From a bacterium (lineage in GTDB: Bacteria > Desulfobacterota > DSWW01), in contig JBFLZG010000137.1 of assembly GCA_040756235.1 (NCBI GenBank), positions 21,493-85,492 on the forward strand: a stretch of 64,000 nt of DNA, in the 5' to 3' direction. The notes beneath the pieces were generated by a model. It saw only the letters and a program-made list of their open reading frames with translations. It was not told the DNA's origin and searched no databases. This document shows, in pieces, positions 32,395 through 45,998 of this stretch. The position numbers were made by a program, and so were the translations under genes. Each line of letters starts with the position of its first letter. Position 1 is the stretch's first letter.

Positions 32395-33201
32395 ATGGCC
32401 GAAAAAGAGGTCCTGTACGATTTGGAGGGCCCGATCGCGATCGTGACCCTGAACCGGCCGGCCAGGATGAACGCCCTGACGCTCGCCGCGCACCGGGAGT
32501 TGGCCGACGCCATCGAGCAAGCCGACAGGGATGAACGAATTCGGGCGATCGTGATCACCGGCGCAGGGAAGGGATTCTGCTCCGGGGATGACGTGGGAGA
32601 CGTGTTCCTGAGCCCGGAGGAAGACGCCTTCAAGACCCGGGAAGCCAGACTCAGACAAATTCAGGGCGAGCACCCTTTCCCGGGAGGGGGTCACCGGTTG
32701 CTGGCGATCAACAAGCCTTCCATCGCAGCCGTGAACGGCCCTGCCGTGGGGTACGGCTGCGAGCTGGCCCTTCTGTGCAACATGCGGGTCGCCTCGGAAA
32801 GAGCCCGCTTCAGCGAGATCTTCCTCAGGGTCGGCCTGATGCCGGACGAAGGCCTGCTGATTCTGCCGAGGCTGATCGGGCTCGCGAAGACCTACGAGAT
32901 GGTCCTCACCACGGACTTCGTCGACGCCCGGGAGGCCGAGCGAATCGGTCTGGTGAACAAGGTGGTTCCCCACGAGGAGCTCATGCCCGCAACCCTGGAG
33001 CTGTGCCGAAAGATCGCCGCCAAGCCTCCCGTCGCGACGCGGCTGGCCATGGAGGGGATCCGAAGGGGCCTTGGATGGCCGCTGGAGTCTTTCATGCGCT
33101 ACCAGGCGGTGGCTTCACCCTTCTGCGCAGAGACGGAAGACCACAAGGAGGGGGCCCGGGCATTCCTGGAAAAACGGGACCCGGTCTTCAAGGGCAGGTA
33201 G
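32395..33201 (+). CDS. enoyl-CoA hydratase/isomerase (crotonase family)
   Basis: IAIVTLNRPARMNA, ITGAGKGFCSGDDV and AVNGPAVGYGCELALLCNMR. Confidence 0.9.
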   Translation: MAEKEVLYDLEGPIAIVTLNRPARMNALTLAAHRELADAIEQADRDERIRAIVITGAGKGFCSGDDVGDVFLSPEEDAFKTREARLRQIQGEHPFPGGGHRLLAINKPSIAAVNGPAVGYGCELALLCNMRVASERARFSEIFLRVGLMPDEGLLILPRLIGLAKTYEMVLTTDFVDAREAERIGLVNKVVPHEELMPATLELCRKIAAKPPVATRLAMEGIRRGLGWPLESFMRYQAVASPFCAETEDHKEGARAFLEKRDPVFKGR

Positions 33202-33420: not shown

Positions 33421-34089
33421 TCATCGGAAGCGGGAGCCGATCCCGTTGAAGACGAAGTCGACGACTTCTTCCTTTCTCTCCTCGATCATCTTCCTGGCGT
33501 AGACATCCTTCTTCCAGAACTCGCGGATGGTCGAAGAGGCGATGAAGAACATGGTCATGCAGCCGAAGATGTTGGAGATGAGGTGGATGGTGTCGTTGCG
33601 GGAGTGCCGATTGCCCTTCATGTTCGAAAAGACGAACCGCTCCGAGAGCTCGAACATCTCGCGCAGGTAAGGCTTGGAGAGGACCTCGTTCACATACTTG
33701 CCCTTGTCGATGGACTCGCGCAGGAGGATCCTGGCCACGTGATCGTTCTCGGCCAGCATGTCGATGCCGATCTCGATCAATTTTCTGAGCTTTTCCTGCG
33801 GCGCGATGTCGTCCTTCATCATGATCGGGAACAGGCGCCGCTGCACGTTCGAATAGTAGTTCTCGATCACGGTCTTGTAGAGGTTCTCCTTGCCCCGGTA
33901 ATGATAGTTGATCAGGGACGGAGTCACCCGGGCGAGGGCAGCGATCTCTGCAGTCCGAGCGCCTTTGAGGCCCTTTTCCGCAAACACCCTCTCCGCCGCC
34001 GCCAGGATCCTCGCCTCGGTATCCTGCGAGTCGTTCCGGTTTCCATCCGACCACCACGGTTGCCTCATCCTGCTTGTCGAGCCCGCCAT
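33421..34089 (-). CDS. TetR/AcrR family transcriptional regulator (paralog 2)
   Basis: ILAAAERVFAEKGLKGARTAEIAALARVTPSLINYHYRGKENLY. It is collinear with paralog 1 over the whole length. Confidence 0.9.
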   Translation of the reverse strand: MAGSTSRMRQPWWSDGNRNDSQDTEARILAAAERVFAEKGLKGARTAEIAALARVTPSLINYHYRGKENLYKTVIENYYSNVQRRLFPIMMKDDIAPQEKLRKLIEIGIDMLAENDHVARILLRESIDKGKYVNEVLSKPYLREMFELSERFVFSNMKGNRHSRNDTIHLISNIFGCMTMFFIASSTIREFWKKDVYARKMIEERKEEVVDFVFNGIGSRFR

Positions 34090-34162: not shown

Positions 34163-34178
34163 TTGAACGTTTGTTCAA
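34163..34178. promoter_or_regulatory. operator candidate TTGAAC-GTTT-GTTCAA
   Basis: Perfect 6+4+6 inverted repeat 74 nt upstream of the TetR paralog 2 start. Its core GAACGTTTGTTC is identical to the site at 29892-29903. Confidence 0.5.
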
Positions 34179-34291
34179 ATTTAGCGGAGGCGTCGACCTC
34201 CTGTCAAGAGGGAAAAGGATCAAAAGATCGATCCAAACTCATCTTCTTTTCAGTCTATTCTGGATCCTGGCAGGGGCGCGCAAAAAAGTTG

Positions 34292-34336
34292 TTGACAGAG
34301 ATCTGGGATCCTGAAATACTTCGAACGGTTCTTCAA
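34292..34336 (+). promoter_or_regulatory. candidate sigma70 promoter (TTGACA-17-AATACT) plus imperfect operator TCGAAC-GGTT-CTTCAA
   Basis: The -35 is at 34292-34297, the -10 at 34315-34320 and the operator-like site at 34321-34336, 30 nt before ATG 34367. Confidence 0.45.
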
Positions 34337-34366: not shown

Positions 34367-34840
34367 ATGAGAATCGAGCAGGGCGAGCTGATTCTGGAGG
34401 ATGGCGAGGTCCCGGTCCGACCGGGGGCCTTCACCCGCGTCCCGGGAGATCCGGCGCCTCATCTGATGGGGCGGCAGTGCCCGGACTGCGGGGACATTTC
34501 CTTCCCGCCTTTCCGGCACTGCCTGCGGTGCGGAAGCGACCGGGAGACGGTGGAGAAGGTCCTGGGCAACGAAGCACGGCTGCTCGGGTACACCGTCGCC
34601 AGGCAGGTCATGCCCGGGTTCCACCCCGGATACGTGCTGGCCAAGGTGCGCATGAAGGATGATCCGACGCTGGTGCTGACTGCCCAGCTTGCGGATGTAA
34701 AAGAGGAGGATGTCGCGATCGGGATGGAGCTGGTCATGGTGCCGAGGATCATCAAGTCCCTCATGACAGGGGAAAAGGTCGTATCCTACTGCTTCCGCCC
34801 CAAGGACCCGGCCAGGGTGACGCCGGACACAGCGGGGTAG
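34367..34840 (+). CDS. Zn-ribbon/OB-fold protein (DUF35 family; thiolase partner)
   Basis: CPDCGDISFPPFRHCLRCGS (CxxC...CxxC rubredoxin-like), followed by an OB-fold segment. It lies directly upstream of a thiolase, the canonical pairing. Confidence 0.85.
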   Translation: MRIEQGELILEDGEVPVRPGAFTRVPGDPAPHLMGRQCPDCGDISFPPFRHCLRCGSDRETVEKVLGNEARLLGYTVARQVMPGFHPGYVLAKVRMKDDPTLVLTAQLADVKEEDVAIGMELVMVPRIIKSLMTGEKVVSYCFRPKDPARVTPDTAG

Positions 34841-34922
34841 GGGCGAAAGGATTTTTCCCTACAGCTCGCAACAGGCTCCGCAGATGGGCCTTTTTCAACG
34901 GCCTGCCAAGGAGGAGGCTTGA

Positions 34923-36086
34923 ATGAGAGACGTAGCAATCATCGGCGCCGGCATGATCCGGTTCGGCAAGTTTCCTGACTACCCGGCCGCCCGCATGGGA
35001 GGGGACGCGGCGGAGATAGCCCTCAAACAGGCGGGAGTCAAGCCCACCCAGATCGAAGCCACCTTCGTCGGGAATACCGGCGGGAACGCGCCCAACCTGG
35101 GGCAGCGGGTCAACGGCGAGATCGGGGTGACGGGAATCCCCGCATTCAATCACGAGAACGCCTGCGCCAGCTCTTCGGCCGCCTTCCGCCAGGCGGCCCT
35201 CGCGGTCGCGAGCGGCATTCACGACTACGTGCTCGTGGTGGGCGTCGAGAACATGACTTCCCACATCGCTTCGGGCCGCGTGCCTGCAGGCCCTCTCGTC
35301 CTTCCGCACGGAGCCAACATCGAGGCGGACAACGGGATGATGATGCCGGCCGTGTTTGCGCTCCTCGGGAGCCATCACATGGCCGAGTACGGAACCACAC
35401 CGGAGCAGTTCGCCAAGGTGGCGGTCAAGAACCACGCCCATTCCGTGCACAACCCGTACGCCCAGTACCAGAAGGCGTTCACGCTGGAGGAGGTGCTGAG
35501 CTCCCGGATGGTCTGCGATCCTCTGACGCTCCTGCAGTGCTGCCCGATCGGGGACGGCGCGGCGGCCGTGGTCGTCACGACCGCCGCGAACGCGGCGAAA
35601 CACACGACCAAGCCGGTCCACGTCGCGGGCTCGGTGCTGACGTCGGGAAAGTACAAGGCTTCGGTGGAAGGGCCGGTTCAGCTCGAGGCCTGCGTGCGGG
35701 CCGCCAGGCAATGTTACGAGGTAGCCGGCGTCGGGCCCGAAGATCTGGACGTGGTGGAGCTCCATGACTGCTTCAGCATCCACGAGCTGGTGGCCTACGA
35801 GGACCTCGGTCTCTGCCCCAAGGGCGAGGGCGGGCGCTTCATCGACGAGGGGCAGTCGGGTTACGGGGGCAAGGTGGTGGTGAACCCGTCGGGCGGGCTC
35901 CTGTGCAAGGGCCACCCGATCGGGGCCACGGGCGTGGCCCAGCTCGTAGAGGTGGTCTGGCAGCTCCAGGGTGTGTGCGGCGCCCGGCAGGTCCCGAATG
36001 CGAAGGTCGGCCTCACGCACAACGGGGGAGGCTTCGGACCCGGCAACGAGCCCGGCGCCATGAGCATCACGATCGTGAAGATCTGA
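34923..36086 (+). CDS. thiolase-fold protein (SCP-x/nonspecific lipid-transfer-type thiolase)
   Basis: Preceded by AAGGAGGAGG. Motifs are NACASSSAAFRQA (nucleophilic Cys), GHPIGATGVAQ and THNGGGFG. Confidence 0.9.
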   Translation: MRDVAIIGAGMIRFGKFPDYPAARMGGDAAEIALKQAGVKPTQIEATFVGNTGGNAPNLGQRVNGEIGVTGIPAFNHENACASSSAAFRQAALAVASGIHDYVLVVGVENMTSHIASGRVPAGPLVLPHGANIEADNGMMMPAVFALLGSHHMAEYGTTPEQFAKVAVKNHAHSVHNPYAQYQKAFTLEEVLSSRMVCDPLTLLQCCPIGDGAAAVVVTTAANAAKHTTKPVHVAGSVLTSGKYKASVEGPVQLEACVRAARQCYEVAGVGPEDLDVVELHDCFSIHELVAYEDLGLCPKGEGGRFIDEGQSGYGGKVVVNPSGGLLCKGHPIGATGVAQLVEVVWQLQGVCGARQVPNAKVGLTHNGGGFGPGNEPGAMSITIVKI

Positions 36087-36191
36087 TGAGACTCAGCGGA
36101 TGACATCTTCGGTTTCTGAGCCAGCCTGCTTGCAGGAGGAGATCTTTCGGGTTCCGGGGGCCGAAGGATGGCCGGATGCAAGGCGCGCGAC

Positions 36192-36268
36192 AATTCCGCA
36201 GGACAGCGGAATTGGACGCATCATCCGCGAGGATGATGCGCCCGTAGGGCGAGGGCCATGGATGGCCC
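36192..36268 (+). other. four consecutive perfect stem-loops in a 323-bp intergenic region (structured RNA / REP-like cluster)
   Basis: The four hairpins are: aattccgc-aggaca-gcggaatt (36192-36213); gcatcatcc-GCGA-ggatgatgc (36218-36239, GNRA loop); gccc-gta-gggc (36240-36250); gggcca-tgga-tggccc (36253-36268). Confidence 0.6.
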
Positions 36269-36409
36269 GAGTCAAATTTGAGGAGTGAGACGTAACCGGG
36301 AGTCACAGTGGACCCCGGCCTTCGCCGGGGCAGGCTCCCCCCGCCACATGCGCCATGCGGGCAGTACAGCGGATGTGCGTTTATCGACAGCTCATTACGG
36401 AGGGGAGCG

Positions 36410-37789
36410 ATGGCCTTTGCCGACTACTTCGACGAGAAGCTCTACCGAATCCAGAACACGCCCGAGGTGAAACAGATCCAGCTTGAGAAGCTCAGGCGCC
36501 ACCTGGCCAGGTTCTACCAGCAGAGCCCGGCTGTGCGCATGTTCGTGGATTCGCAGGGGATCGCGCCCGAGAAGATGACACTGGAGGCCTTCCGGCTGGG
36601 CTTCCCCCTGCTCGGCCAGGGAACGCTACGGGGATCTGTGGCCTCCGAAGGCTCCCGGGAACCGGGATACATCGTGCAGGTGATCTCCGGCATGCTGGGC
36701 ATCGACCCATCCGAGTACGTACTGATGTGCGCCACCTCCGGCACCACGGGAGAGCCCACGCCCTACTTCTTCACGGCCGAGGACCTCGATTTCATGCCGA
36801 GGGGCACGAGCCGCGGCATGTACATGGTGACCCAAGGCAACCTGGAAGAGATCAAGCGGATGCGGGCCGTGCAGGCCTTCGGGCTGAGCATGTTCGGAGC
36901 CGGTGTTCCGCTGGTGGAGTGCCTGATCCGGCTGGGCGTGGGCTGCATTCCGGTGGGCGCCGAGGCCGGTACGGACCGCATCCTCAAGTTCGCCGAACGG
37001 TTCGCCGCCAACTGCATCTGGTGCACGCCTTCCCTTGCGGAGTACATGGTGGACACCGCCCTCGAGCGGATCCGGGCCATCGGGTTCAAGTACGTCTTCT
37101 GCGGCGCGGAGCCGGGAGCGGGAATTCCCGAGGTGCGCCAGAAGATCGAATCCGGCTTCCAGACCAAGCTCTACGACGGCATGGGCCTGATCGGCGGCCT
37201 GACCCTCTTCTCCTGCGGAGAAGAGGAGTACGCGGGGATGCACCACCTGACGGACGACATGTTCCTGTTCGAGCTGGTGGACCCCGAAACCAAGGAGACG
37301 ATCCCCTGGGAGGACCAGGCGGTCGGCGAGATGGTGATGACGCCGCTCCAGGGGTGCACGATCCCTCCGGGACGCTTCTCCTCCGGCGACGTCGCTCAGC
37401 TGTTCCTTGCCCCGTGCAAGTGCGGCGCTCCGGGATGGCGGATCAAGATGCGGGGGCGCACGGACGACATGCTGAAGGTCAAGGGGGTCATCGTCTATCC
37501 GGCCGCGGTCGATGGCGTGATCACCGGGTTCGTGCCGCGCCTGACGGGCGAGTTCCGCATCGTCCTCGATGCGCCGCCGCCCCGGGTGGAGCCGCCCCTG
37601 AAGCTCAAGGTCGAGTACGGCGAGGGCGTTCGCGAGGAGGACCTGGAAGGGCTCGGCAAGGAGCTCGAGGCCGAGATGCACGCCAAGCTCAAGGTCCGCC
37701 CGCGGATCACCTGGGTGCCGCCCATGACGCTCGAGCGGGCGGCCCACAAGACCAAGTTCATCGAGAAGGCCTACGAAGAGAAGAAATAA
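36410..37789 (+). CDS. phenylacetate-CoA ligase (PaaK)-like adenylate-forming acyl-CoA ligase
   Basis: Start trimmed to ATG 36410, preceded by GGAGGGGA. It has the CATSGTTGEPTPYFFT P-loop and KVKGVIVYPAAV, and is 459 aa. Confidence 0.8.
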   Translation: MAFADYFDEKLYRIQNTPEVKQIQLEKLRRHLARFYQQSPAVRMFVDSQGIAPEKMTLEAFRLGFPLLGQGTLRGSVASEGSREPGYIVQVISGMLGIDPSEYVLMCATSGTTGEPTPYFFTAEDLDFMPRGTSRGMYMVTQGNLEEIKRMRAVQAFGLSMFGAGVPLVECLIRLGVGCIPVGAEAGTDRILKFAERFAANCIWCTPSLAEYMVDTALERIRAIGFKYVFCGAEPGAGIPEVRQKIESGFQTKLYDGMGLIGGLTLFSCGEEEYAGMHHLTDDMFLFELVDPETKETIPWEDQAVGEMVMTPLQGCTIPPGRFSSGDVAQLFLAPCKCGAPGWRIKMRGRTDDMLKVKGVIVYPAAVDGVITGFVPRLTGEFRIVLDAPPPRVEPPLKLKVEYGEGVREEDLEGLGKELEAEMHAKLKVRPRITWVPPMTLERAAHKTKFIEKAYEEKK

Positions 37790-37801
37790 GGGGAAGACCA
37801 G

Positions 37802-38605
37802 ATGCCCGAGATCTACATGAACGACTGGCCTCCGTTCGCGCCCGACGACCAGAACCGGCGCGAGGCCACGCTCGTGGCGGTCAAGCTCATGGCCAACGCG
37901 GCGCAGACCGCGCCGAACGCCGGGGGCGTCTCCCAGATCGAGGCCTCCATCGTTTACGGCTACCGCGAGCAGGACCAGATCGCACGGAAGATGGAGGAAA
38001 TTGCCCACACGCGCTACGCCGACACGATGCTCGGCCGCCGCTTCCTGTACGAAGCCGTCATGGTGAGAGAGTCGGACGCCGTGCTGCTGCTCGGGAATTT
38101 CCGCGCCAAGGACACGCCCATGGACGCCAAATGCGGCGCCTGCGGCGGCCGTCGCGATTGCTCTTTCCTGTACAGCAGGCGCGATGCGCCGAGCGGCATC
38201 ATCGATCACACCCGCCGGCAGCACGAGACGTTCATCGATGGTCCCCTCTGCGGTGTGCGCTGCCAGGATTTCGGGTATGCCATGGGCTCGGCCCTCTGGA
38301 TGGCCAACCGGCTGATGATCGACGCCAGGGCCTATATGACGGTGGGGATGGCCGCGCTCCTGGTCGGCTATCTGAAGGACTCCTCGATCTGCATCGGGGT
38401 CCTGGCTGCCGCGCTTTCCAAGAACCCGTACGTGGACGTCAACACCGACTACCACGTGCTCAATCTGGGCCGGCACGTGGACGGTCTCCGCAAGCACTAT
38501 GCCCTGGGCCGGCAGGCGGGCGGCGACTACCGGGTCTCGGATCCGGGCTTCGATGCCGCCAAAGCCAGAAAGAAGGCTCTCAAGGCGGACCAGGATTCCG
38601 AGTGA
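37802..38605 (+). CDS. DUF2148-type Cys-rich (putative Fe-S) protein, paralog 1
   Basis: AVKLMANAAQTAPNAGGVSQIE, CGACGGRRDC and GPLCGVRCQDFGYAMGSALWMA match my recollection of the DUF2148 layout. Confidence 0.55.
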   Translation: MPEIYMNDWPPFAPDDQNRREATLVAVKLMANAAQTAPNAGGVSQIEASIVYGYREQDQIARKMEEIAHTRYADTMLGRRFLYEAVMVRESDAVLLLGNFRAKDTPMDAKCGACGGRRDCSFLYSRRDAPSGIIDHTRRQHETFIDGPLCGVRCQDFGYAMGSALWMANRLMIDARAYMTVGMAALLVGYLKDSSICIGVLAAALSKNPYVDVNTDYHVLNLGRHVDGLRKHYALGRQAGGDYRVSDPGFDAAKARKKALKADQDSE

Positions 38606-38615
38606 GGGGGACCCC

Positions 38616-39443
38616 ATGCCTGTCTACGATGCCAATCAACTCGCTCAGGAAAAGCTCTTCGATGTGGCCGTCTCGTGCGCCCAGGCAGCTCTCAAGGCGC
38701 CCCAGATCACCGGCAAGGTCGAGATCAAGATGCAGATCCTGACCGGTGAGGAGCTCAACCCGATCATGGAAGCCCTGACCATCCTGGGGCGGATCGACAT
38801 GTTCAACTTCCTGAGCTTCGCCACCTGGCAGAGCGCGGCCGCCCAGGGCAAGATGCCGGTCTTGCTCCTCATCGGTGCGGACGTGCGCCACAGCGACCTC
38901 AACTACAACTGCGGGGCGTGCGGCTTTCCGACCTGCGGCGAGTTCAACAAACACTCCAAATCCGTGACTCCGCCCCCTTACATCATGGTGAAAGGACCGG
39001 TCTGCATCTGGCGCCTGATCGATTATGCAGGGGCCTGCGACTGGGCCTGCGCGACCGCCTGGCAGCACAATGTCACGAACCGGATCGAGATCGCCTCGGG
39101 CTGGGCGTCCCGCGAGGTGGGATACCTGGAGGATTGCGACGTGGTCCACGGCCTGCCGCTGGGGCCGTGCACGGACCTGCACTGGTACTCCCGTGAGGCC
39201 GTCTCTGCCATGATGGACTACGACCTCTGGCTCGGCCGCACCCACCAGAACTATCCCACCATGTTCGGCACCTTCCCGGGAGAGGGCAGGCCCGACATCA
39301 AGATCCGGCCCGACTGGTGGAAGCAGCCGGCCGAGGTCGAGATCAAGCACATCCCTCCGGAGCAGTTCGAGGAGCTCTACGCCGGGGTGGAGAACGACCT
39401 GAAGGAGCTGAAAGGACGGGTGAAGGCCGCAAGAGCCGAGTGA
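38616..39443 (+). CDS. DUF2148-type Cys-rich (putative Fe-S) protein, paralog 2
   Basis: Start trimmed to ATG 38616, preceded by GAGGGGGA. AVSCAQAALKAPQITGKVEIK, NYNCGACGFPTCGEF and GPVCIWRLIDYAGACDWACATA give the same architecture as the preceding gene. Confidence 0.55.
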   Translation: MPVYDANQLAQEKLFDVAVSCAQAALKAPQITGKVEIKMQILTGEELNPIMEALTILGRIDMFNFLSFATWQSAAAQGKMPVLLLIGADVRHSDLNYNCGACGFPTCGEFNKHSKSVTPPPYIMVKGPVCIWRLIDYAGACDWACATAWQHNVTNRIEIASGWASREVGYLEDCDVVHGLPLGPCTDLHWYSREAVSAMMDYDLWLGRTHQNYPTMFGTFPGEGRPDIKIRPDWWKQPAEVEIKHIPPEQFEELYAGVENDLKELKGRVKAARAE

Positions 39444-39476
39444 GCGCGGGAGGCTTCACCCTTGAGGAGAGAGGAT

Positions 39477-42425
39477 ATGGAAATCCATAAGAGCACCGTG
39501 TCCGCGGCAGCGCCGGAAGGCGGCACGCTGCCCGAAAGACTCAGCCGGATCGTGGGACCGGAGCGGGTCACGACCGACCCCGGGCGGATCGCGTCTCGTC
39601 TCGGGCGGCCTGCCGGTGCGGCGCCGGCCCTGATCTGTGTGGAGCCGGCCGATGCCGGCGAGGTGCAGGAGGTCGTCGCACTGGCCGCTCGCCTAGGCTC
39701 GGCGGTGTTCACGCTCACCGACCGCACGCCGGACCCCTCCCTGGAGCTCGGCCGGGGCGGCATCCTGCTGGATCTGAGCCGGTTGCAGGGAATCGAGCGC
39801 GTGGACAAGCGCAACTTGCTGGCCCACGTCGAACGCGGGGTGACGTTCGCGGCCCTGAAGGAAGCCCTGGACGGTCAGGGGGTCAAGATCGCGGCGCCGC
39901 TGGCGGCCACGTCGGACTCGGTGCTGCAGAACTTCGTCAATCGAGCGCCGCTCAAGAAGGCGACGCTCTACCCGGAGGTGCACGTCTACAACCTGCAGGT
40001 GGTCATGGCCGACGGCAGGCTCTTCAGGACCGGCAGCCACGCCCTGAACGAGCTGGAGGACTGTCGGGAAGACGGCGGGCCGAGCCTGAGCCGCTGGCAC
40101 ATCGGGAGCGAGGACGTCTTCGGCATCGTGACCCGCGCGACGGTGTGGCTGTACCCCAAGGCCGAGAGCCGGGACGCACTCCTGTTCGGGTTCGACCGGC
40201 TGGAGGATGCGGTCCGGGTGCTGCGCAACGTCCCGCGGACCGAGCTCGGGTGGGAGTGGCTGGCGCTGGACCGGCGGTTCGCCGCGCACCTGCTCGGGGA
40301 GAAGGAGCCTCGTCTGCCGGCCTGGACGGTGGTGGTCGGGTTCGATCACCGCCGGAAGATGGTGGAGTATCAGAAGCGACGAGTGGCGGAGCTCGTGGGC
40401 GGGCTGGACGGCCGGCCTCTGGAGGATTACCGGGAGGCGTTTGCGCGGCTTCTGGACGAGGTCTGGTTCCAGGCTTCCCCTTTGCACACGGGATATTACT
40501 GCGCGTGCAACCGCGCCGCCGACCTGGACCGCGTGGCCCGGAGCCATTTTTCCGGAGCCGGCGCCACCGGGGACGAGTTGGGCCGCTGTCTGCTTTCCGT
40601 CAACCGGGGCCGCTGCCTGTACGCGCAGCACGATCTGTTCATGGACGCCGGGGGGCGCGAGGCTCTCATGGAGGGCCTGGAACGTGAGCTTGCGGGCCTG
40701 GGAGCATTTTTCGACCGCCCCCGCGGGGCCGTGGCCGACGACGTGCTCGCCCGGGTGCCGAACCTGCGCAAACAGCTGGCCACGATCAAGGCGGTGGTGG
40801 ACCCGCAGGGAATCCTCAACCCGGGCCGGTACGTGCGCCGGGAAGATCCCGTTTACGCGCCCCTGGCGGTGGCATATTCGTGCGCCGAAGACACCGGGGT
40901 CGAGGCGGCCAACCTGGAGGAGGTGGAAGGCAAGGTCAAGGCGGCGTTGGGGACGGAGTGGGTGAGCTCGAACCGTGCGGACCTGTCCGCCTACGGGCGG
41001 GACTTCACCGTCTTCTCCGGGGAACGGCCGAACATCGTGGTCCTGCCGCGCACGACCGAAGAGGTGCAGGCGGTGGTGCGGATTGCCTACGCGCACAAGA
41101 TCCCCGTGGTACCCCTCTCGACCGGGTTCAACCACGGCGGGCTCACGGTGCCGAGGAAGGGCGGGATCCTGGTCGACCTGAAGCGGATGAACCGGCTGGT
41201 GTCGATCGACGAGGAGACGATGACGGCCACCTTCGAGCCGGGAGTGCGGATGCGCTCGTTGTGGTACGAGACGCACAACGTGGAGACCTTCGGCGGGATC
41301 CGGCTCAAGCCGATTCTTCCCCTGACCCTTGGAAGCGTCTCCCTCCTGAGCAACTACGTTTCCCGGGGGGGACCCGGCAGCGCCGTCAAGTACGGCTTCG
41401 GCTCCGACCTCACGGTCAACATGACCTGGGTTCTGCCCAACGGCGAGATCTTCAGGACCGGGCCGTCTTCGGTCCCGGGTGTGGGGGACCTCGGGCTCAA
41501 CTGGGGGCCGGGGCCGGACGTGACCGGCATGTTCTTCAACGCGGACGGCGCCTTCGGGATCTGTACCGAGATCACGGCCAAGCTCTATCCGGACATGCCC
41601 AAGGAACAGATCGTCCAGACCGCAGTCTTCGACGAAGACCCGGTCGGCTGCCGCAAGGCGTGCGACATCATGTACGACGTCTGCCAGGACAACCTGGTCG
41701 AGTTCATCTACAAGAGCCATCCGGGGGTCATGTGCGTGACCCTGGCCGGTCTCATGGGGGGCAAGCCTCAGGACTACATGATGATGACCCCCAGGCATCC
41801 GCTCTTCATGATCTTGACCGGAATGGACGAGGAGGAGCTGGCGATCCGGGCCGAGTTGGTGAGAGAGATCTTTGCCAGGCACGAGGTCCTGGAGCTCGAC
41901 GTGAGCATGCTGCCGCCCGAGTTTGCGGACTTCATGTCCACCGAGCCGATGAAGGCGAGCCTCGGGCTCAAGAACACGACCGTAGGGGCCTATCGGGGTG
42001 CCTTCCAGTGGCAGGCCGGCTACATACAGGTGGACAAGGTGCCGGGGATCAATCAGGAATACAAGAAGCTCATCCGGAAGTACTGGAAAACCTCGGACAT
42101 CTCCATGACCGAGGAGTCCGCGCTGACCGGGACCGATATCCAGGGTCCGCTCCCTTACGCCCGGATGGGGACCGTGGAGTTCGACTACTGGTGGGACCAG
42201 GGGAATCCGGAATCGGTCAAGCGGGCAGGGGTCATGATCCGCAAGACCACGGAGCTCATGTTCCGGCACGGGGTCATCCCGATCCGGAACATGTTCGGGT
42301 TCGGCGAGCTGCTGCTGCCGAGGCTCACCGTGTACAACGAGATCCTGAAGAAGGTGCGAGCCGTCTTCGACCCGGCCAACCTCATGCACCCGGACGTGCT
42401 GCCGGCGACCGAAGACTATGTGTGA
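39477..42425 (+). CDS. fused double FAD-binding PCMH/VAO-type flavoprotein (982 aa)
   Basis: There are two tandem FAD_binding_4-like modules. The C-terminal one is canonical (IPVVPLSTGFNHGG, GGILVDLKRMNRLVSID, VLPNGEIFRTG). The N-terminal one is collinear, but its glycine-rich FAD loops are replaced (FTLTDRTPDPSLELGRGGILLDLSRLQGIERVD; SDSVLQNFVN). Start is ATG 39477 after GAGGAGAGAGG. Confidence 0.75.
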   Translation: MEIHKSTVSAAAPEGGTLPERLSRIVGPERVTTDPGRIASRLGRPAGAAPALICVEPADAGEVQEVVALAARLGSAVFTLTDRTPDPSLELGRGGILLDLSRLQGIERVDKRNLLAHVERGVTFAALKEALDGQGVKIAAPLAATSDSVLQNFVNRAPLKKATLYPEVHVYNLQVVMADGRLFRTGSHALNELEDCREDGGPSLSRWHIGSEDVFGIVTRATVWLYPKAESRDALLFGFDRLEDAVRVLRNVPRTELGWEWLALDRRFAAHLLGEKEPRLPAWTVVVGFDHRRKMVEYQKRRVAELVGGLDGRPLEDYREAFARLLDEVWFQASPLHTGYYCACNRAADLDRVARSHFSGAGATGDELGRCLLSVNRGRCLYAQHDLFMDAGGREALMEGLERELAGLGAFFDRPRGAVADDVLARVPNLRKQLATIKAVVDPQGILNPGRYVRREDPVYAPLAVAYSCAEDTGVEAANLEEVEGKVKAALGTEWVSSNRADLSAYGRDFTVFSGERPNIVVLPRTTEEVQAVVRIAYAHKIPVVPLSTGFNHGGLTVPRKGGILVDLKRMNRLVSIDEETMTATFEPGVRMRSLWYETHNVETFGGIRLKPILPLTLGSVSLLSNYVSRGGPGSAVKYGFGSDLTVNMTWVLPNGEIFRTGPSSVPGVGDLGLNWGPGPDVTGMFFNADGAFGICTEITAKLYPDMPKEQIVQTAVFDEDPVGCRKACDIMYDVCQDNLVEFIYKSHPGVMCVTLAGLMGGKPQDYMMMTPRHPLFMILTGMDEEELAIRAELVREIFARHEVLELDVSMLPPEFADFMSTEPMKASLGLKNTTVGAYRGAFQWQAGYIQVDKVPGINQEYKKLIRKYWKTSDISMTEESALTGTDIQGPLPYARMGTVEFDYWWDQGNPESVKRAGVMIRKTTELMFRHGVIPIRNMFGFGELLLPRLTVYNEILKKVRAVFDPANLMHPDVLPATEDYV

Positions 42426-42436
42426 AGCAGGTTCTA

Positions 42437-42535
42437 GGTGTCAGGTTTCAGGTGTCGGACCCCCTCTTTCGCCCCTGAGAACTGGCCACTGAAAGCTGAC
42501 ACTGGGCAACTGAAAACGGGTAACTGACAACTCCT
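42437..42535 (+). repeat. short tandem repeats in the 137-bp gap before the CCG gene
   Basis: AGGTGTC/AGGTTTC/AGGTGTC at 42437-42457. Then about 2.5 copies of a ~21-bp unit rich in ACTGA (aactggccactgaaagctgac / actgggcaactgaaaacgggta / actgacaactcc) at 42481-42535. Confidence 0.7.
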
Positions 42536-42562
42536 CCAATCTTGACCGAGAGGGAGTCGACC

Positions 42563-43801
42563 ATGGCCAGGGATGCCAGGATCGCCCGGGACATCAAGCC
42601 CCTGATGGAATACCGGAACATGGCCTGGAAATGCTGGAAGTGCGGCTTTTGCCGCATGTCCCACCCGGACGAGCAGTTCACCCACAAATACGCGGACAAC
42701 TGCCCCCGGGGGACTCGGTACCGGTTCGAGTCTTTCTACGGAGCCGGAACGCAGGAGCTCGTTCGCGCCCTGACGTGTGATCCTCCCGAACTGGACCTGG
42801 CGGATCCGGAGACCGCGCAGAGGATTCAGAAGATCGTCTATACCTGCCCGCAATGCGGGGCCTGCCAGGTGAACTGCAACCCCACCAAGTTCCTGGAGCC
42901 GGCCAACGCCTCGATGGCGCTCAGGCAGTGGCTCGTGAAACAGGGGCTCGGGCCGCTTCCGGAGCACCAGCCGCTGGTCAAGAGCATCCTCAATTACGAC
43001 AACCCCTGGATGCAGCCGCGGGCGGCGCGCCAGAAGTGGGCGAAGAAGAGGAAGGTCAAGGACGCCGGCACGGAAAAGGTCGAAGTGCTTTACTACCCCG
43101 GATGCACGGCTTCCTATGACCCCTACATCCAGCCGGTGGCCGGCTGGGTGACCGAAGTGCTGAACGCGGCGGGCGTGGATTTCGGCATCCTGGGCAAGAA
43201 CGAGATCTGCTGCGGGTCCACGGTCCTGCGGGTCGGGGACCTGGATTCCTTCCGCACCATCCGGCGGCGCAACCTGGAATCCCTGAACTCCACCTCTGCC
43301 CGGGTGATCGTCACGGCATGCGCGGGCTGCTTCAGCACACTCACCCACGAGTACGAGGGAGATCTGAAGGCAGAGGTCAAGCACATCGTCCAGTTCGTGG
43401 ACGAGCTCATCCAGGCTGGGAAATTACAATTCAGAAAGGACCTTAATCTTAAAGTAACTTATCATGATCCATGCCATGTAGGCCGATATTGCGACGTTTA
43501 TGAACCGCCTCGCAACATCCTGAAGGCGTTGCCTGGCGTAACCCTCAAGGAGATGAACCGCATCCGTCAGTGGAGCTGGTGCTGCGGCGCTGGGGGCGGG
43601 TGCAGGACCGCCTTCCCGGAGGAGGTGGCCGGGTTCGCCGCCGAGGCGAGGCTGGAAGAGGCGCACGAGACCGGCGTCAGGACACTGGTCACGGCCTGTC
43701 CGTTTTGCGAGCAGAACCTCGGTGAGAACGCGAAGCGGACCCACGAGCGCTACGGCATGGAGGTGCAAGACATCATGGAGCTAGTCTATCAGGCGTTGTG
43801 A
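42563..43801 (+). CDS. (Fe-S)-binding protein with two CCG domains (HdrD/GlcF-like)
   Basis: Start ATG 42563 after GAGAGGGAG. It has CPQCGACQVNC, CKCGFCRMS-type clusters and two CCG motifs (NEICCGST, WSWCCGAGGG) with YYPGCTASY / YHDPCHVGR. Confidence 0.85.
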   Translation: MARDARIARDIKPLMEYRNMAWKCWKCGFCRMSHPDEQFTHKYADNCPRGTRYRFESFYGAGTQELVRALTCDPPELDLADPETAQRIQKIVYTCPQCGACQVNCNPTKFLEPANASMALRQWLVKQGLGPLPEHQPLVKSILNYDNPWMQPRAARQKWAKKRKVKDAGTEKVEVLYYPGCTASYDPYIQPVAGWVTEVLNAAGVDFGILGKNEICCGSTVLRVGDLDSFRTIRRRNLESLNSTSARVIVTACAGCFSTLTHEYEGDLKAEVKHIVQFVDELIQAGKLQFRKDLNLKVTYHDPCHVGRYCDVYEPPRNILKALPGVTLKEMNRIRQWSWCCGAGGGCRTAFPEEVAGFAAEARLEEAHETGVRTLVTACPFCEQNLGENAKRTHERYGMEVQDIMELVYQAL

Positions 43802-43863: not shown

Positions 43864-44844
43864 TTGCCCGAGAAAGGTGTGGGTGATCGGAAAGGGCTCT
43901 TGCTCCTGCGCCTGGCCTTTCTGGCCTGTGCGCTGACCGCCGCGCTGGCTTCGCCTCCGGCCGCCCGCGCCGCCGAGGGCGCGGGGGCGATCTGGCGGTT
44001 CGATTTTCGTGATGTGTTTTATGACGCCACCTTCGTGCGGCCGGACTGGGGGGTGGTCGTGGGAGCCCGGGGCCGGATCCTCACCTCTCACGAGCGTTAC
44101 CCCAACCTGTGGGCCGTGCGGGAATCCGGCACGACCGAGCTGTTGACCTGCCTGAGCTTCGCGGATGAACGGCACGGGTGGGCGGCCGGGCACGGAGGCA
44201 TCATCCTCGGCACGACAGACGGCGGGCGCACCTGGGAGGTCCAGAGGGAGTCCGCGCCGGAGAACCAGCCCCTCTTCGACATCCAGTTCCCGACGTTCCA
44301 GGCCGGATACGCCTGCGGCGCCTTCGATACTTTCCTGAAAACCGCTGACGGAGGCAAGAGTTGGGAGGAGATCCCGACCGGCCTGGACATCATGCTCAAC
44401 GGGATGGCTTTTGCGGATGAACTACAGGGGTACATGGTGGGTGAGTTCGGGACCGTGGTTCGCACCCGGGACGGGGGAGCCTCGTGGGAGAAGCTCGATA
44501 CGGGAGACTACCAGGGGTCTCTCTTCGGCATCACGCTCCTGTCGGAGCAGGAAATCCTGGTTTGCGGGATCGCCGGCAAGATCCTGCGGAGCGAGGACGC
44601 GGGCGAGACGTGGAGCGGGATCCCGTCGGCCACAGACCAGTCCCTGTTCCGGGGGGCCGCCCAGGGGGAGGAGGTCGTCCTGGCGGGCAACTCCGGAACG
44701 ATCCTCTGCAGCCGGGATCGCGGGAAGCATTTCATCCCAAGGAAGGACGAGGATCTCACGAGCTTTGCAGGCGTGTGCCCACACCCGGGCGGAGGCTTCC
44801 TCTGCCTCGGAGACACGGGGAAGATCGTTCATCTGCAGCCCTGA
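43864..44844 (+). CDS. Ycf48/BNR-like beta-propeller protein, secreted
   Basis: TTG start 8 nt after AAGGAG. Signal peptide LLLLRLAFLACALTAALASPPAARA. Repeated T.DGG.SWE blocks (TTDGGRTWEV, TADGGKSWEE, TRDGGASWEK, SEDAGETWSG). Confidence 0.8.
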   Translation: MPEKGVGDRKGLLLLRLAFLACALTAALASPPAARAAEGAGAIWRFDFRDVFYDATFVRPDWGVVVGARGRILTSHERYPNLWAVRESGTTELLTCLSFADERHGWAAGHGGIILGTTDGGRTWEVQRESAPENQPLFDIQFPTFQAGYACGAFDTFLKTADGGKSWEEIPTGLDIMLNGMAFADELQGYMVGEFGTVVRTRDGGASWEKLDTGDYQGSLFGITLLSEQEILVCGIAGKILRSEDAGETWSGIPSATDQSLFRGAAQGEEVVLAGNSGTILCSRDRGKHFIPRKDEDLTSFAGVCPHPGGGFLCLGDTGKIVHLQP

Positions 44845-44900: not shown

Positions 44901-45998
44901 ATGATGAGCCAGGATGCCTATTTCCAACTCGGTGAGCGGCTGAACGAGTATCAGGTGAAGATGATGCTGGTGGAGCCCTATCTGAAGATTCTCCGAGAGA
45001 TCTACACGGATGAAGAAGCGCAGCTCGGTGCTGAATTCCCCCTGGGAGCGCACACGGCTCCGGAGCTCGGCCAAAAGCTCGGCCGGCCGGAGAAGCCGCT
45101 CGCGGAGTTGCTGGAGAGGATGGCGGACAAGGGCACGATCTTTGTTACGAAGAGCGATGACGGAGTGAGCCGATACGCCCTGACGCCGTTCGTTCCCGGC
45201 GTGGTCGAATTCCAGCTCATGCGGGGCACGGATACGCCCAAAGACCGGAAGTTTGCCAAGATGCTGGAAGAGTTCATGGAGGGGGAGATGGCCGACCTGG
45301 CCCGGGCGGCATTCAAGGACCCGGAAGTGGCCAAACAGATGATCCCCGTTCCACCGGCTCGGACGGTCACGGTGCAGAAGGAGCTACCTCCCAATACCCA
45401 GGTCTATTCCTTCGAGAAGCTGAGCCAGCTCGTCGAGCAGGAAAACTTCTTTGGCGCGGCGAAGTGCTACTGCAGGCACCACGCATACCTGGTGGGAAAA
45501 CCGTGCAAGGTCCCGGGCGTCCCGGAGTATTCGTGCCTCATGTTCGGCAAGACAGCCGAGTATGTAACGGAACGAGGTTTCGGCAAGAGGATCACCAAGG
45601 AAGAAGCGTACCGGATCCTGGAGGCCACGGAGAAGGCGGGCCTCGTGCACAATACGAGCAACCTGCTCGACAGCACGGTTTTCGTGTGCAACTGCTGCGG
45701 TTGCTGCTGCGGCTTTTTGAAGAGCATGCAGCTCATGGGCACGAATGCGATGCTGTCCTTCTCGAACTTCAGGGTCCAGGCTGACACGGCGGAGTGCGTG
45801 GGGTGCGGGGATTGTGTGGAGCGCTGCCAGGTGGGTGCACTGAGTCTGGCCGAGGACGTAATTTCCGTGGCAGAGTCCAAGTGCCTGGGCTGTGGCAACT
45901 GCGTATCGGCTTGCCCTACGGAGTGTCTGACCATGGTCAGGCGTTCTGAGTGGATCCCTCCTGAGGCCGGAGATTCCCTGGGGGGGCTGGGGATGTAG
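44901..45998 (+). CDS. 4Fe-4S dicluster protein with N-terminal winged-helix-like domain and CNCCGCCC motif
   Basis: CVGCGDCVERC and CLGCGNCVSACP ferredoxin motifs. Upstream are CYCRHH...CKVPG...C and VCNCCGCCCGF. The N-terminal ~100 aa look wHTH-like (ELGQKLGRPEKPLAELLERMADKGTIF). Confidence 0.7.
   Translation: MMSQDAYFQLGERLNEYQVKMMLVEPYLKILREIYTDEEAQLGAEFPLGAHTAPELGQKLGRPEKPLAELLERMADKGTIFVTKSDDGVSRYALTPFVPGVVEFQLMRGTDTPKDRKFAKMLEEFMEGEMADLARAAFKDPEVAKQMIPVPPARTVTVQKELPPNTQVYSFEKLSQLVEQENFFGAAKCYCRHHAYLVGKPCKVPGVPEYSCLMFGKTAEYVTERGFGKRITKEEAYRILEATEKAGLVHNTSNLLDSTVFVCNCCGCCCGFLKSMQLMGTNAMLSFSNFRVQADTAECVGCGDCVERCQVGALSLAEDVISVAESKCLGCGNCVSACPTECLTMVRRSEWIPPEAGDSLGGLGM

Follow-up and report, generated by a model that had tools for sequence, protein, structure and literature searches.

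The gene block at positions 36410-43801 of the window (the whole 64,000-nucleotide stretch of DNA that we analysed) is composed of two independent redox modules, a pair of DUF2148 proteins (A and B) and a flavoprotein/Fe-S protein unit, within one CoA-dependent degradation operon of an anaerobe. We consider it highly probable that the modules can be separated and that DUF2148-AB has a redox function in a ligase-plus-thiolase pathway. For the two-module catabolic operon taken as a whole, which is the best explanation that we can offer, we estimate a probability of roughly 0.45. The genes concerned are:

33421-34089, minus strand: TetR-family regulator, divergent (Pfam TetR_N, TetR_C_29)
34367-34840, plus strand: DUF35 protein, ChsH2-type zinc-ribbon plus OB-fold (Pfam OB_ChsH2_C, zf-ChsH2)
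34923-36086, plus strand: SCP-x/BbsB-type thiolase (Pfam Thiolase_N, Thiolase_C_1)
36410-37789, plus strand: PaaK-like acyl-CoA ligase of the AMP-binding_C_2 type (Pfam, NCBIfam)
37802-38605, plus strand: DUF2148-A (PF09918), predicted nitroreductase-like fold with an inserted Cx2Cx5Cx29C loop
38616-39443, plus strand: DUF2148-B (PF09918), paralog of A, with a Cx2Cx4Cx22C loop of the type of Pfam FeS (PF04060)
39477-42425, plus strand: fused two-module VAO/PCMH-family flavoprotein, 982 aa (FAD_binding_4)
42563-43801, plus strand: HdrD/GlcF/TfrB-like Fe-S protein with two ferredoxin-type Cys motifs and two CCG domains

The ORF coordinates agree with the original prediction of five tightly spaced, co-directional genes, from the ligase gene to the CCG gene, with intergenic gaps of 12, 10, 33 and 137 nt. 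GC3 is ~0.83-0.89 in all five, as genuine genes of this window (64% GC) typically have. Alternative TTG starts are present for the flavoprotein ORF (39462, upstream of 39477) and the CCG ORF (42542, upstream of 42563), and a GAGGGAG ribosome-binding site lies ahead of the ATG at 42563. A terminator in the 137-nt gap had been named as something that would count against a coupled unit; a scan of this gap detected no terminator-like sites, and its fold is not better than that of shuffled sequence (z = 0.34). The limits first proposed for the unit, 36410-43801, proved too short, since the DUF35 and thiolase genes lie upstream of the ligase gene on the same strand and are syntenic in all close relatives (the DUF35 gene in L001 and L092-L095). 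Between the TetR and DUF35 genes is a divergent promoter-like region with sites on both strands (34178-34320). The DUF35 and thiolase genes are probably the first of the operon, which would then span 34367-43801 and continue into transport genes up to 48684. Orthologs of the TetR protein, the probable repressor of the operon, occupy the same position in L001, L092-L095 and L097, and L130 also has a homolog.

The ligase matches Pfam AMP-binding_C_2 (41.7 bits) and, weakly, AMP-binding; because it scores only 127-139 bits against the NCBIfam PaaK models, far below their cutoffs of 646-700, we describe it as PaaK-like rather than as PaaK. The DUF35 protein is a thiolase partner, with a weak match to BbsA. 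NCBIfam matches of the thiolase fall under equivalog cutoffs. Among 68 DUF2148-linked homologs, 97% keep its nucleophile, Cys81, and all keep His281, His331 and Asn321; judged by these catalytic residues, it is predicted to be a true thiolase. We then determined which genes lie near DUF2148 pairs at 50 well-flanked loci, counting ligase and thiolase genes up to 7 kb away. Thiolase and any CoA ligase were each found at 92% of loci and ACAD at 72%; SDR (32%), ECH (12%) and VAO (6%) were rarer. Thus, the proposed CoA-thioester context holds, and so does the expected co-occurrence of the pair with a ligase, but not that with a VAO flavoprotein, which is absent nearby in 47 of the 50 loci.

Assignment of both proteins to DUF2148 was borne out by HMM search (PF09918; A, 52.6 bits; B, 47.9 bits; cutoff 25), as was the presence of conserved Cys clusters in both. 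In A, C111-x2-C114-x5-C120 and the Cys of G-P-L-C150 are invariant across 28 homologs; in B, C99-x2-C102-x4-C107 and the Cys of G-P-V-C130 are invariant across 71, and two further Cys residues, C141 and C145, are semi-conserved. Going by sequence, four invariant Cys per subunit would be suited to one all-Cys [4Fe-4S] cluster each. Comparison of A with B by hhalign indicated paralogy (probability 99.1%, E = 7e-19). AlphaFold models of A (pLDDT 65, with 35-40 in the Fe-S loop region) and B (pLDDT 87, pTM 0.83) retrieved only nitroreductase-superfamily structures in Foldseek searches, with probability ~1 and TM-scores of 0.35-0.57, so that each subunit is modelled as a nitroreductase-like fold with an inserted four-Cys loop. 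Flavin binding by A and B is only putative, because neither protein shows a clear N-terminal FMN-phosphate motif of the canonical nitroreductase kind, Pfam Nitroreductase matches neither, and the profile of A matched no solved structure by sequence.

In all 80 genome loci the two genes are adjacent, with B after A. A is the more conserved subunit: in pairwise comparisons over 68 paired loci, its sequences share 58% identity on average, against 42% for those of B. The identities of the two correlate (r = 0.92), indicating that they are co-evolving. Their constant adjacency and co-evolution, together with a nitroreductase-like fold that is dimeric by nature, suggest that A and B would form an obligate heterodimer, with A the presumed catalytic subunit and B presumed to serve in electron entry or as a structural subunit. 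In other lineages the pair carries its own electron-input module: Pfam places a GltD-like module (Fer4_20 plus Pyr_redox_2; NAD(P)H/FAD/2x[4Fe-4S] type) inside the B protein of L058 and L080, long B ORFs of the same kind are found in L061, L064, L072 and L084, and in P0188 the module is at the C-terminus of A, with a normal B and a ligase downstream. These fusions argue that the DUF2148 pair is an oxidoreductase itself and not a VAO-dedicated relay. An electron-input module of the same kind is joined to a substrate-reducing domain in 2,4-dienoyl-CoA reductase (FadH) and dihydropyrimidine dehydrogenase. We lean towards A/B being catalytic rather than a relay. By analogy with these two enzymes, its most likely chemistry would be ene-reduction or dehydrogenation, that is, two-electron reduction of a C=C conjugated to the thioester, or the reverse dehydrogenation; this assignment is tentative, with the odds against it. 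An ene-reductase role would leave A/B partly redundant with ACADs, given their presence at 72% of loci.

A redox-neutral function for DUF2148-AB is unlikely. The pair would then be a (de)hydratase or lyase for a hindered enoyl- or hydroxyacyl-CoA, filling a hydratase step that is usually missing, with its clusters taking part in radical chemistry or in activation, as those of 4-hydroxybutyryl-CoA and 2-hydroxyacyl-CoA dehydratases do. Consistent with this, ECH is an infrequent neighbour, as is MaoC, which does not appear in the set of 25 Pfam families to which most of the 149 nearest unassigned ORFs match; compact operons, for instance the one in Desulfotruncus arcticus (sigma54 activator, A, B, thiolase, SCP2, ligase, ACAD), have neither a hydratase nor a hydroxyacyl-CoA dehydrogenase gene; and since the thiolase appears catalytically intact, 3-oxoacyl-CoA must be made. 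However, four Cys ligands per cluster would leave no open iron site, and the pair has twice, independently, been fused to an NAD(P)H-dependent module, which speaks for net electron transfer. ECH and SDR genes are present near the block in the window and in its relatives, so the argument from a missing step cannot fix the DUF2148 reaction. An activator-type ATPase beside the pair, of the BcrAD/BadFG type, would also fit a dehydratase, but was seen at one locus, and as a fragment only.

The second module usually occurs without DUF2148. As originally described, FAD_binding_4 (140 bits) and CCG (116 bits) each match in two stretches, and each half of the flavoprotein is a full VAO-type module. The N-module (~residues 1-465) is GlcE/GlcD-like; its FAD loop is degenerate in comparison with that of the C-module (~residues 466-982), where the FAD pyrophosphate loop, P(L/Q)(S/T)TGFNHGG, is invariant in 24 homologs and the cap domain has no assigned type. 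The 982-aa flavoprotein is thus a fused GlcE/GlcD-like pair and forms a GlcDEF-type module with the CCG protein, which agrees with the GlcD/GlcF-like pairing first proposed. GlcDEF-type enzymes come with their own Fe-S subunit. Among 37 metagenome loci with the flavoprotein, the CCG gene comes after it in most, and DUF2148 occurs in the closest group only.

The original prediction was that all five proteins form one CoA-ester dehydrogenase/hydroxylase complex, in which the DUF2148 pair is only an Fe-S relay or scaffold between flavoprotein, CCG protein and ligase. Tight spacing without a terminator, all-Cys clusters without a recognised FMN motif, and conservation of the ligase-A-B-VAO block in close relatives at 72-86% identity (L001/L002 and L092-L095) all fit such a complex, but we now find it distinctly unlikely. 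The block is kept only among those relatives, and in L092-L095 it lacks an adjacent CCG gene. Besides the scarcity of VAO genes beside DUF2148 pairs, most well-flanked loci with the fused flavoprotein have CCG without DUF2148 (L097, L099, L103, L104, L106, L108-L110, L116 and L119), as does L129, where the flavoprotein is unfused. In L130 each module has its own operon, the two being divergent. Moreover, the Fe-S subunit that the pair would provide is already built into GlcDEF-type enzymes. What stands is the Fe-S redox role of DUF2148, given the invariant Cys residues and the GltD-like fusions; a plain ferredoxin-like scaffold does not accord with the nitroreductase-like fold and the invariant non-Cys residues of A. 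In the window's own lineage, electron exchange between A/B and the VAO/CCG module could nonetheless occur.

Unfused flavoprotein homologs (L009, L010, L129 and L130) connect this module to published systems. The gene order in L129 and L130 is FAD-CCG-FAD, with the CCG gene between both FAD genes, and both loci also carry ligase, thiolase, DUF35, TetR, FADx, Ycf48, MMPL, DUF1302 and DUF1329 genes. The 'Magic' and 'Nanopod' benzene clusters described in 2026 contain an FAD/CCG trio with matching order and neighbours (PMC13101534, sections 6, 12 and 13), and share with L129/L130 this trio next to genes for a ligase, beta-oxidation, TetR and Ycf48/MMPL/DUF1329; MMPL with a Ycf48-related protein belongs to the 'Nanopod' cluster (PMC13101534, Table 2). 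BzS1_12970/80/90 is the same trio (PMC13416013, section 3.5). The window's flavoprotein/CCG pair matches 'Magic' and BzS1_12970/80/90 by architecture and neighbours, the features on which they were compared, and is built like the glycolate-oxidase-like candidate "benzene-activating" enzyme of 2026.

It is very unlikely that DUF2148-AB is a dedicated carrier, a large ferredoxin without a substrate site that links ACADs or other dehydrogenases to redox pools. Were A/B to lack a flavin, its only cofactors would be two all-Cys clusters, as expected of a pure electron carrier; the frequency of ACAD genes and the varied redox neighbours of the pair (ETF/EMO-type CCG, Mo-oxidoreductase with NrfCD, AFOR-like protein, ferredoxins) are also consistent with this role. 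However, 48 columns of A are at least 95% identical and most are non-Cys, ACAD is already served by complete ETF plus CCG systems that co-occur with the pair, and the constant partners, ligase and thiolase, are non-redox enzymes. Four loci with the insertion in B (L058, L061, L064 and L080) have no ACAD gene beside the pair, so the fused NAD(P)H module there has no obvious client except A/B.

Downstream of the block are genes for transport and further redox proteins:

43864-44844, plus strand: Ycf48/BNR-like beta-propeller protein (Pfam PSII_BNR)
44901-45998, plus strand: 365-aa protein with a C-terminal 2x[4Fe-4S] ferredoxin domain (Pfam Fer4 family, residues 292-345)
46321-48684, plus strand: MMPL/RND-family transporter with a sterol-sensing-like domain (Pfam MMPL, Sterol-sensing)
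53265-54341, plus strand: 'FADx', a 358-aa FAD/NAD-binding flavoprotein weakly like geranylgeranyl reductase and HpnE

Homologs of the beta-propeller protein adjoin MMPL in L040 and L130, and it probably belongs to a unit that transports hydrophobic substrates. In L130 the MMPL homolog (461-463 bits) is followed by DUF1302 and DUF1329 genes, and a homolog of the 365-aa protein lies directly 3' of A-B in the same operon, making this protein a candidate electron partner of DUF2148-AB. FADx lies beside the DUF2148 pair or VAO genes in many loci (L001, L007, L009, L010, L021, L045, L089, L092-L095, L097, L106-L110 and L130). The same 30-kb island has four tandem CruF-like (Caroten_synth) genes and two CrtI/CrtD-like flavoprotein genes. 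We give little credence to a biosynthetic cluster that modifies or exports an isoprenoid- or carotenoid-like lipid: these genes, the MMPL exporter, the geranylgeranyl-reductase-like gene and the CruF-like genes directly after VAO or CCG in L092-L096, L111 and L123 would suit one, but ACP, prenyltransferase and phytoene/squalene synthase are absent, and there are genes for ACADs, ECHs, thiolase, ETF systems and an AdhE-type bifunctional aldehyde/alcohol dehydrogenase. The regulators, of the TetR/FadR type and, elsewhere, sigma54, are typical of catabolic operons, and the nearest counterparts in the literature are catabolic clusters that are highly induced (PMC13101534, PMC13416013).

As substrate, the neighbouring genes suggest an acid that is aromatic or derived from a hydrocarbon, or else an isoprenoid acid. 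These hints conflict, the CruF-like and CrtI-like genes indicating isoprenoids and the PaaX, BbsAB-like and OYE-type reductase genes of other loci indicating aromatics. In the two-module catabolic operon that we favour, a strict anaerobe would, under TetR control, use the PaaK-like ligase to turn a hydrophobic organic acid into its CoA thioester, and the thiolase with its DUF35 partner to shorten the side chain. The C-module of the flavoprotein may dehydrogenate or hydroxylate the substrate, with electrons leaving via the HdrD-like Fe-S protein. DUF2148-AB would act independently as an oxidoreductase of the CoA ester, with A catalytic and B the point of electron entry, and its electron partner may be interchangeable, a fused GltD-like module elsewhere and the ferredoxin-domain protein here.

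The original prediction grouped five tightly spaced genes at 36410-43801 into one unit. All five co-directional open reading frames were confirmed, as were the gaps of 12, 10, 33 and 137 nt between them, and their third-position GC content resembles that of real genes in the window (64% GC). The genes are thus real, but the unit is longer, with a DUF35 gene and a thiolase gene directly upstream. These two genes lie behind a divergent promoter-like region that they have in common with a TetR gene, and the seven-gene block, from DUF35 through the CCG gene, is syntenic in the closest relative (locus L001; handles of this form denote homologous loci). The features of this region are:

34367-34840: DUF35 gene, directly upstream of the five-gene block
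34923-36086: thiolase gene, directly upstream of the five-gene block
36410-43801 (+): five-gene block, opening with the CoA ligase gene
37802-38605 (+): DUF2148-A (hereafter A)
38616-39443 (+): DUF2148-B (hereafter B)
39477-42425 (+): 982-aa VAO/PCMH-family flavoprotein (N-module and C-module)
42563-43801 (+): HdrD/GlcF-like CCG protein

A terminator in the 137-nt gap ahead of the CCG gene would argue for uncoupled transcripts; we detected no terminator-like site and no unusual structure there, and the CCG gene has a good ribosome-binding site. The gap (42426-42562) contains repeated CTGA(A/C)A-like words (...actgaaagctgacactgggcaactgaaaacgggtaactgacaactcc...) with no stable fold, and these could be a regulatory or operator-like element. 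Pfam assigns the ligase to AMP-binding_C_2 (PaaK-type), finds FAD_binding_4 in two stretches of the 982-aa protein, and finds two CCG domains in the last protein of the block. However, all five proteins fall far below every NCBIfam equivalog cutoff; hence, none can be named as a known enzyme. The ligase scores 139 bits against a PaaK equivalog cutoff of 700 bits, and 126.5 bits against one of 646 bits; judged by sequence, its resemblance to PaaK is one of architecture only.

Assignment of A and B to DUF2148 (PF09918) held up in a Pfam HMM search (52.6 and 47.9 bits, respectively; cutoff 25), and the cysteine motifs first noticed in the window are invariant across homologs: Cx2Cx5C...GPLC in A (C111, C114, C120 and C150) and Cx2Cx4C...GPVC in B (C99, C102, C107 and C130). 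DUF2148 is a small family, for which a search of 1.84 billion representative proteins gives 446 clusters at E ≤ 1e-3, and we found neither a function for DUF2148 nor any mention of it in the literature searched. A scan of one genome per species yielded 159 relatives, and we retained the best 80 loci of these 159. All 80 are from strict anaerobes, and in every one of them a B-type gene immediately follows the A-type gene. Hosts of DUF2148 include Desulfobacterales, Desulfotomaculum-like Firmicutes (e.g. Desulfotruncus arcticus), Syntrophomonadaceae and Dehalococcoidia, among others; Desulfotruncus arcticus DSM 17038, D. alcoholivorax and Desulfocicer vacuolatum DSM 3385 are carriers available in culture. 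A and B are paralogous (hhalign probability 99.1%, E = 7e-19, 21% identity) and co-evolve: their pairwise identities correlate at r = 0.92. A is the more conserved of the two, with a mean pairwise identity of 58% versus 42% for B, and 48 versus 25 columns at ≥95% identity.

AlphaFold models of A (pLDDT 65) and B (pLDDT 87, pTM 0.83) both place the four-Cys segment as an insertion into a nitroreductase-like fold. For A and B alike, all of the top 50 listed Foldseek matches in the PDB belong to the nitroreductase/FMN superfamily, with probability ~1 and TM-scores of 0.35-0.57. Members of this superfamily bind FMN at the dimer interface, and their reactions include ene-reductions and C-alpha/C-beta dehydrogenations. 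Hence, both DUF2148 models are predicted to have the alpha+beta fold of NfsA/B, BluB, iodotyrosine deiodinase, the FbiB C-domain and AlbA, and the dimeric architecture would be alike, although for DUF2148 we propose a heterodimer of paralogs. The pair differs from the superfamily in its inserted four-Cys Fe-S loop and in having no sequence-level match to it: neither A nor B matches Nitroreductase (PF00881) in Pfam, phmmer and a profile search of PDB sequences found no solved-structure relative of DUF2148, and an hhalign comparison with two nitroreductases encoded at related loci yielded no sequence-level link. The canonical N-terminal Arg/Ser FMN-phosphate motif is likewise not evident in the aligned N-termini of A and B.

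We scored neighbours within 7 kb of the DUF2148 pair at 50 loci with at least 4 kb of flanking sequence on both sides. An SCP-x-type thiolase is present at 92% of these loci, any CoA ligase at 92% (PaaK-type 50%, FadD-type 44%), an acyl-CoA dehydrogenase (ACAD) at 72%, an SDR at 32%, a CCG protein at 20% (mostly the 680-aa type accompanying ETF), an enoyl-CoA hydratase (ECH) at 12% and a VAO-type flavoprotein at 6%. Thus, the expected association of the pair with a ligase is borne out, but that with a VAO flavoprotein is not. Most of the 149 nearest open reading frames that were unassigned match one of 25 Pfam families, and MaoC hydratases are not among these. One typical operon (L086) runs ligase, A, B, ACAD, thiolase, EtfA, CCG, EtfB, SDR; another, in Desulfotruncus arcticus, runs sigma54 activator, A, B, thiolase, SCP2, ligase, ACAD. 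The phenylpropanoate operon of Desulfococcus multivorans, considered as a DUF2148-type operon, has a FadB-like fusion and no DUF2148. Acetone-carboxylase-like (L003), AFOR-like, OYE-type reductase and PaaX genes at other DUF2148 loci hint at ketone, aldehyde or aromatic intermediates. In a Dehalococcoidales MAG (L003/L004), the pair lies beside acetone-carboxylase-like genes (hydantoinase A and B plus a gamma subunit) and a two-subunit CoA transferase; the same neighbourhood holds an HMGCS-like-DUF35 fusion, a thiolase, an HpaB/4-hydroxybutyryl-CoA-dehydratase-like gene and a molybdopterin oxidoreductase. This arrangement hints at ketone carboxylation feeding the thiolase.

Domain architecture indicates that DUF2148 has undergone two independent fusions. 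One lineage has a Fer4_20 + Pyr_redox_2 module within B, as an insertion immediately ahead of the Fe-S loop (L058 and L080 by Pfam, with long B open reading frames of the same kind in L061, L064, L072 and L084). This is the NAD(P)H/FAD/2x[4Fe-4S] module of GltD, NfnB and the N-terminus of dihydropyrimidine dehydrogenase. In the second fusion, an A-type protein (P0188, 747 aa; L128:1723-3966) has a GltD-like module at its C-terminus; next after its gene come a normal B gene and a ligase gene. That an electron-input module has been acquired twice speaks for a net transfer of electrons to or from A/B. Moreover, loci with the B insertion have no ACAD gene beside the pair, leaving no obvious redox client except A/B itself. 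Together, these observations favour a self-standing oxidoreductase over a passive relay. Analogy with 2,4-dienoyl-CoA reductase (FadH) and dihydropyrimidine dehydrogenase, whose substrates have a C=C bond conjugated to a carbonyl or thioester, suggests that A/B may reduce a C=C bond conjugated to the thioester. These enzymes, like the GltD-DUF2148 fusions, couple an NAD(P)H/FAD/Fe-S input to a domain that reduces the substrate and has a [4Fe-4S] cluster of its own; however, their catalytic domain is an FMN-containing TIM barrel of the OYE or DHODH type, and not the nitroreductase-like fold predicted for DUF2148. The likeness is one of function and not of membership, and the window itself has no fusion. 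Directly 5' of the A-GltD fusion gene, beside a transposase remnant, L128:1197-1670 encodes a 157-aa fragment of a BcrAD/BadFG-type ATPase, in a single occurrence; ATPases of this type act as activators for 2-hydroxyacyl-CoA dehydratases and benzoyl-CoA reductases.

Among homologs of the thiolase encoded upstream of the block, 97% retain Cys81, and all retain His331, His281 and Asn321. These proteins are true thiolases, since the nucleophilic Cys and catalytic His are kept. The same residues rule out an Ltp2-type retro-aldolase, which would have made a hydroxyacyl-CoA dehydrogenase dispensable through retro-aldol cleavage of the hydroxyacyl-CoA. As in BbsAB benzoylsuccinyl-CoA thiolase and the archaeal thiolase/DUF35 pair, a DUF35 zinc-ribbon/OB protein adjoins an SCP-x-type thiolase with its catalytic Cys and His intact, but the window proteins are not BbsAB orthologs (289 versus 750 bits with the BbsB model; 29 versus 250 bits with the BbsA model).

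Each half of the 982-aa protein is a complete module of the VAO family. The FAD domain of the C-module has its best PDB sequence matches in PCMH (1dii/1wve) and eugenol oxidase (E ~1e-25), and its pyrophosphate loop is invariant across 24 fused homologs. Similarity to the p-cresol methylhydroxylase/vanillyl-alcohol oxidase subfamily is confined to this FAD domain (query residues 14-250). The cap domain matches no known structure by sequence; no cap homologous to that of the 4-alkylphenol-oxidising enzymes was found, their catalytic, phenolate-binding and covalent-FAD residues could not be aligned with the C-module, and the window cluster, unlike PCMH, has no cytochrome c gene. In the N-module (39477-40871), the FAD loop reads T-L-T-D-R-T in place of P-x-G-x-G-x-S/T, with loss of the glycines, and varies among the 24 fused homologs; hence, the N-module is probably a flavin-free partner or pseudo-subunit. 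With the CCG protein, the module resembles GlcDEF glycolate dehydrogenase and the D-lactate/2-hydroxyacid dehydrogenases that have a CCG protein, all of which combine two VAO-type subunits with a GlcF/HdrD-like CCG Fe-S subunit. By this analogy, electrons would pass from hydride to FAD, Fe-S and an acceptor. The window module differs from GlcDEF in its unmatched cap domain and in its context of CoA-ester catabolism, and it lies below the NCBIfam cutoffs for GlcD (141 versus 568 bits), GlcE (17.6 versus 284) and GlcF (62.8 versus 333). The CCG protein is also below those for TfrB (210 versus 385 bits) and HdrB (58 versus 345).

We examined co-occurrence in the reverse direction at 37 metagenome loci encoding fused flavoprotein homologs (47-77% identity). 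At most of these loci a CCG gene follows the flavoprotein gene, and many have VAO and CCG genes with no DUF2148; the DUF2148 pair was found only in the closest group (L092-L095), where the CCG gene is not adjacent. We conclude that the two redox modules are separable. Thus, the CoA-dependent redox context originally proposed is retained, but a single five-protein complex is not. Replacement of ACAD/ETF by VAO/CCG would agree with the lack of an ACAD at the three VAO loci of the genome set; however, in L092-L095 an ACAD lies 3.5 kb downstream, which shows that one does not exclude the other, and we rejected this possibility.

In two unfused relatives (L129 and L130), the gene order is FAD (437-440 aa), CCG (407-409 aa), FAD (516-520 aa), and this trio adjoins SDR, DUF35, thiolase, PaaK-like ligase and SCP2 genes. 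L130 has a homolog of every window gene of the cluster: it also carries genes for TetR, a CruF-like protein, FADx (a 358-aa FAD/NAD-binding flavoprotein, at 53265-54341 (+) in the window), Ycf48/BNR, MMPL, DUF1302 and DUF1329 proteins, and a divergent operon encoding A, B and a ferredoxin-domain protein. The window homolog of this last protein (44901-45998, 365 aa) has no Pfam match in its first ~290 residues, followed by a 2x[4Fe-4S] ferredoxin domain. A different trio, encoding small ferredoxin-like, AFOR_N-only (434-499 aa) and BPL_N-like proteins, recurs 3' of the DUF2148 pair or the VAO trio (L090, L129, L008, L009, L011, L021 and L045). In L090 and L129 it is followed by membrane-anchored Fe-S respiratory-type genes, with NrfD and a molybdopterin oxidoreductase in the former, and Nitrate_red_gam and a second CCG protein in the latter.

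According to two papers of 2026, a trio similar to that of the unfused relatives constitutes the most abundant proteins of anaerobic benzene degraders (PMC13101534; PMC13416013). In Ca. Anaerobenzenivorax ORM2, the 'Magic' cluster (proteins #22-30; accessions WAC08368-70 for the flavoprotein trio) comprises AMP-binding, MaoC, FAD, (Fe-S)-binding/HdrD, FAD, class III CoA transferase, and paired hypothetical and MaoC genes, and a 'Nanopod' cluster contains DUF1329, Ycf48-related and MMPL proteins (PMC13101534). In culture BzS1 on benzene, the 'putative benzene dehydrogenase' BzS1_12970/80/90 (54.5, 46.5 and 65.8 kDa) accounts for about a fifth of the proteome; its genes precede beta-oxidation genes and a TetR gene, and more distant syntenic homologs, at 23-42% identity, are known from organisms that are not benzene degraders (PMC13416013). 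These flavoproteins are the leading candidates for the long-sought activation reaction (PMC13101534; PMC13416013).

The window has in common with these clusters two VAO/PCMH FAD subunits, one with FAD_binding_4 and FAD-oxidase_C and the other with FAD_binding_4 only, and an HdrD-type CCG protein of ~46 kDa (412 aa in the window, in agreement with the size of the published one). In both, an AMP-forming CoA ligase, beta-oxidation-type genes and TetR adjoin, and the hosts are strict anaerobes. The FAD-CCG-FAD order of 'Magic' and BzS1 is found in L129 and L130, and the Ycf48-related and MMPL genes of the window, plus DUF1329 in L130, match the 'Nanopod' cluster. In contrast, the FAD subunits in the window are fused, the CCG gene is last, and the N-module FAD loop is degenerate; DUF35, thiolase and the DUF2148 pair stand in place of the MaoC hydratases and class III CoA transferases of 'Magic', and there is no DUF2148 protein among the published cluster genes (PMC13101534; PMC13416013). 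Likened by architecture and published descriptions, the window module appears to belong to the 'Magic'/BzS1 flavoprotein family, and by this analogy it is a fused variant of a family newly prominent in anaerobic hydrocarbon research.

The operon, together with beta-oxidation-type genes and an AdhE-type gene, forms a catabolic island of ~35 kb (~23-58 kb), with two ACADs, two ECHs, two SDRs, two CrtI/CrtD-like flavoproteins and FADx:

23020-33201: beta-oxidation-type genes; (-) two ACADs, ECH and SDR; (+) CrtD-like flavoprotein, SDR and ECH
48700-53007: four tandem CruF-like (Pfam Caroten_synth) membrane-protein genes, at ~48.7-49.7, 50.0-51.0, 51.0-52.0 and 52.1-53.0 kb
54424-57084: bifunctional aldehyde/alcohol dehydrogenase (AdhE-type)

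The CruF-like open reading frames called at 50001-50981 and 50360-51976 are in different frames and overlap, so starts are approximate. In L092-L096, L111 and L123, homologs of these genes come immediately after the VAO or CCG gene, and L130 has one as well. The gene content of the island would fit an isoprenoid or other hydrophobic substrate. The 23020-33201 and 54424-57084 stretches also hold a second TetR gene. An exopolysaccharide biosynthesis and export cluster unrelated to the operon occupies 1-18400, and encodes three GT4 glycosyltransferases and two FemAB-like proteins, together with a sulfotransferase, a flippase, a Wzy-like protein, one Wza-like exporter and a beta-barrel porin.

We regard the DUF2148 pair as a new enzyme candidate that can be put to the test. 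On the boldest reading, a joint claim to which we give a probability of about 0.3, DUF2148-AB would represent a new class of heterodimeric Fe-S (possibly flavo-) enzyme on a nitroreductase scaffold, performing a specific redox step on CoA thioesters when aromatic, hydrocarbon-derived or isoprenoid acids are degraded anaerobically. Its companion in the window would be a fused relative of the flavin-dependent enzyme proposed as a 'benzene dehydrogenase', and the locus would represent one version of the unsolved system that activates hydrocarbons independently of oxygen. DUF2148 gains a predicted fold (that of nitroreductases, into which an Fe-S loop is inserted), a quaternary logic (A and B as an obligate paralog pair), an invariant metabolic context (CoA ligase and thiolase) and two independent fusions to an NAD(P)H module, which together make a concrete biochemical test possible. 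The GlcDEF-like architecture of the benzene candidates is part of a wider modular family with fused and unfused forms, which recurs with the transporter genes Ycf48, MMPL and DUF1329 in uncultured anaerobes; comparing its variants could separate benzene-specific from class-generic features.
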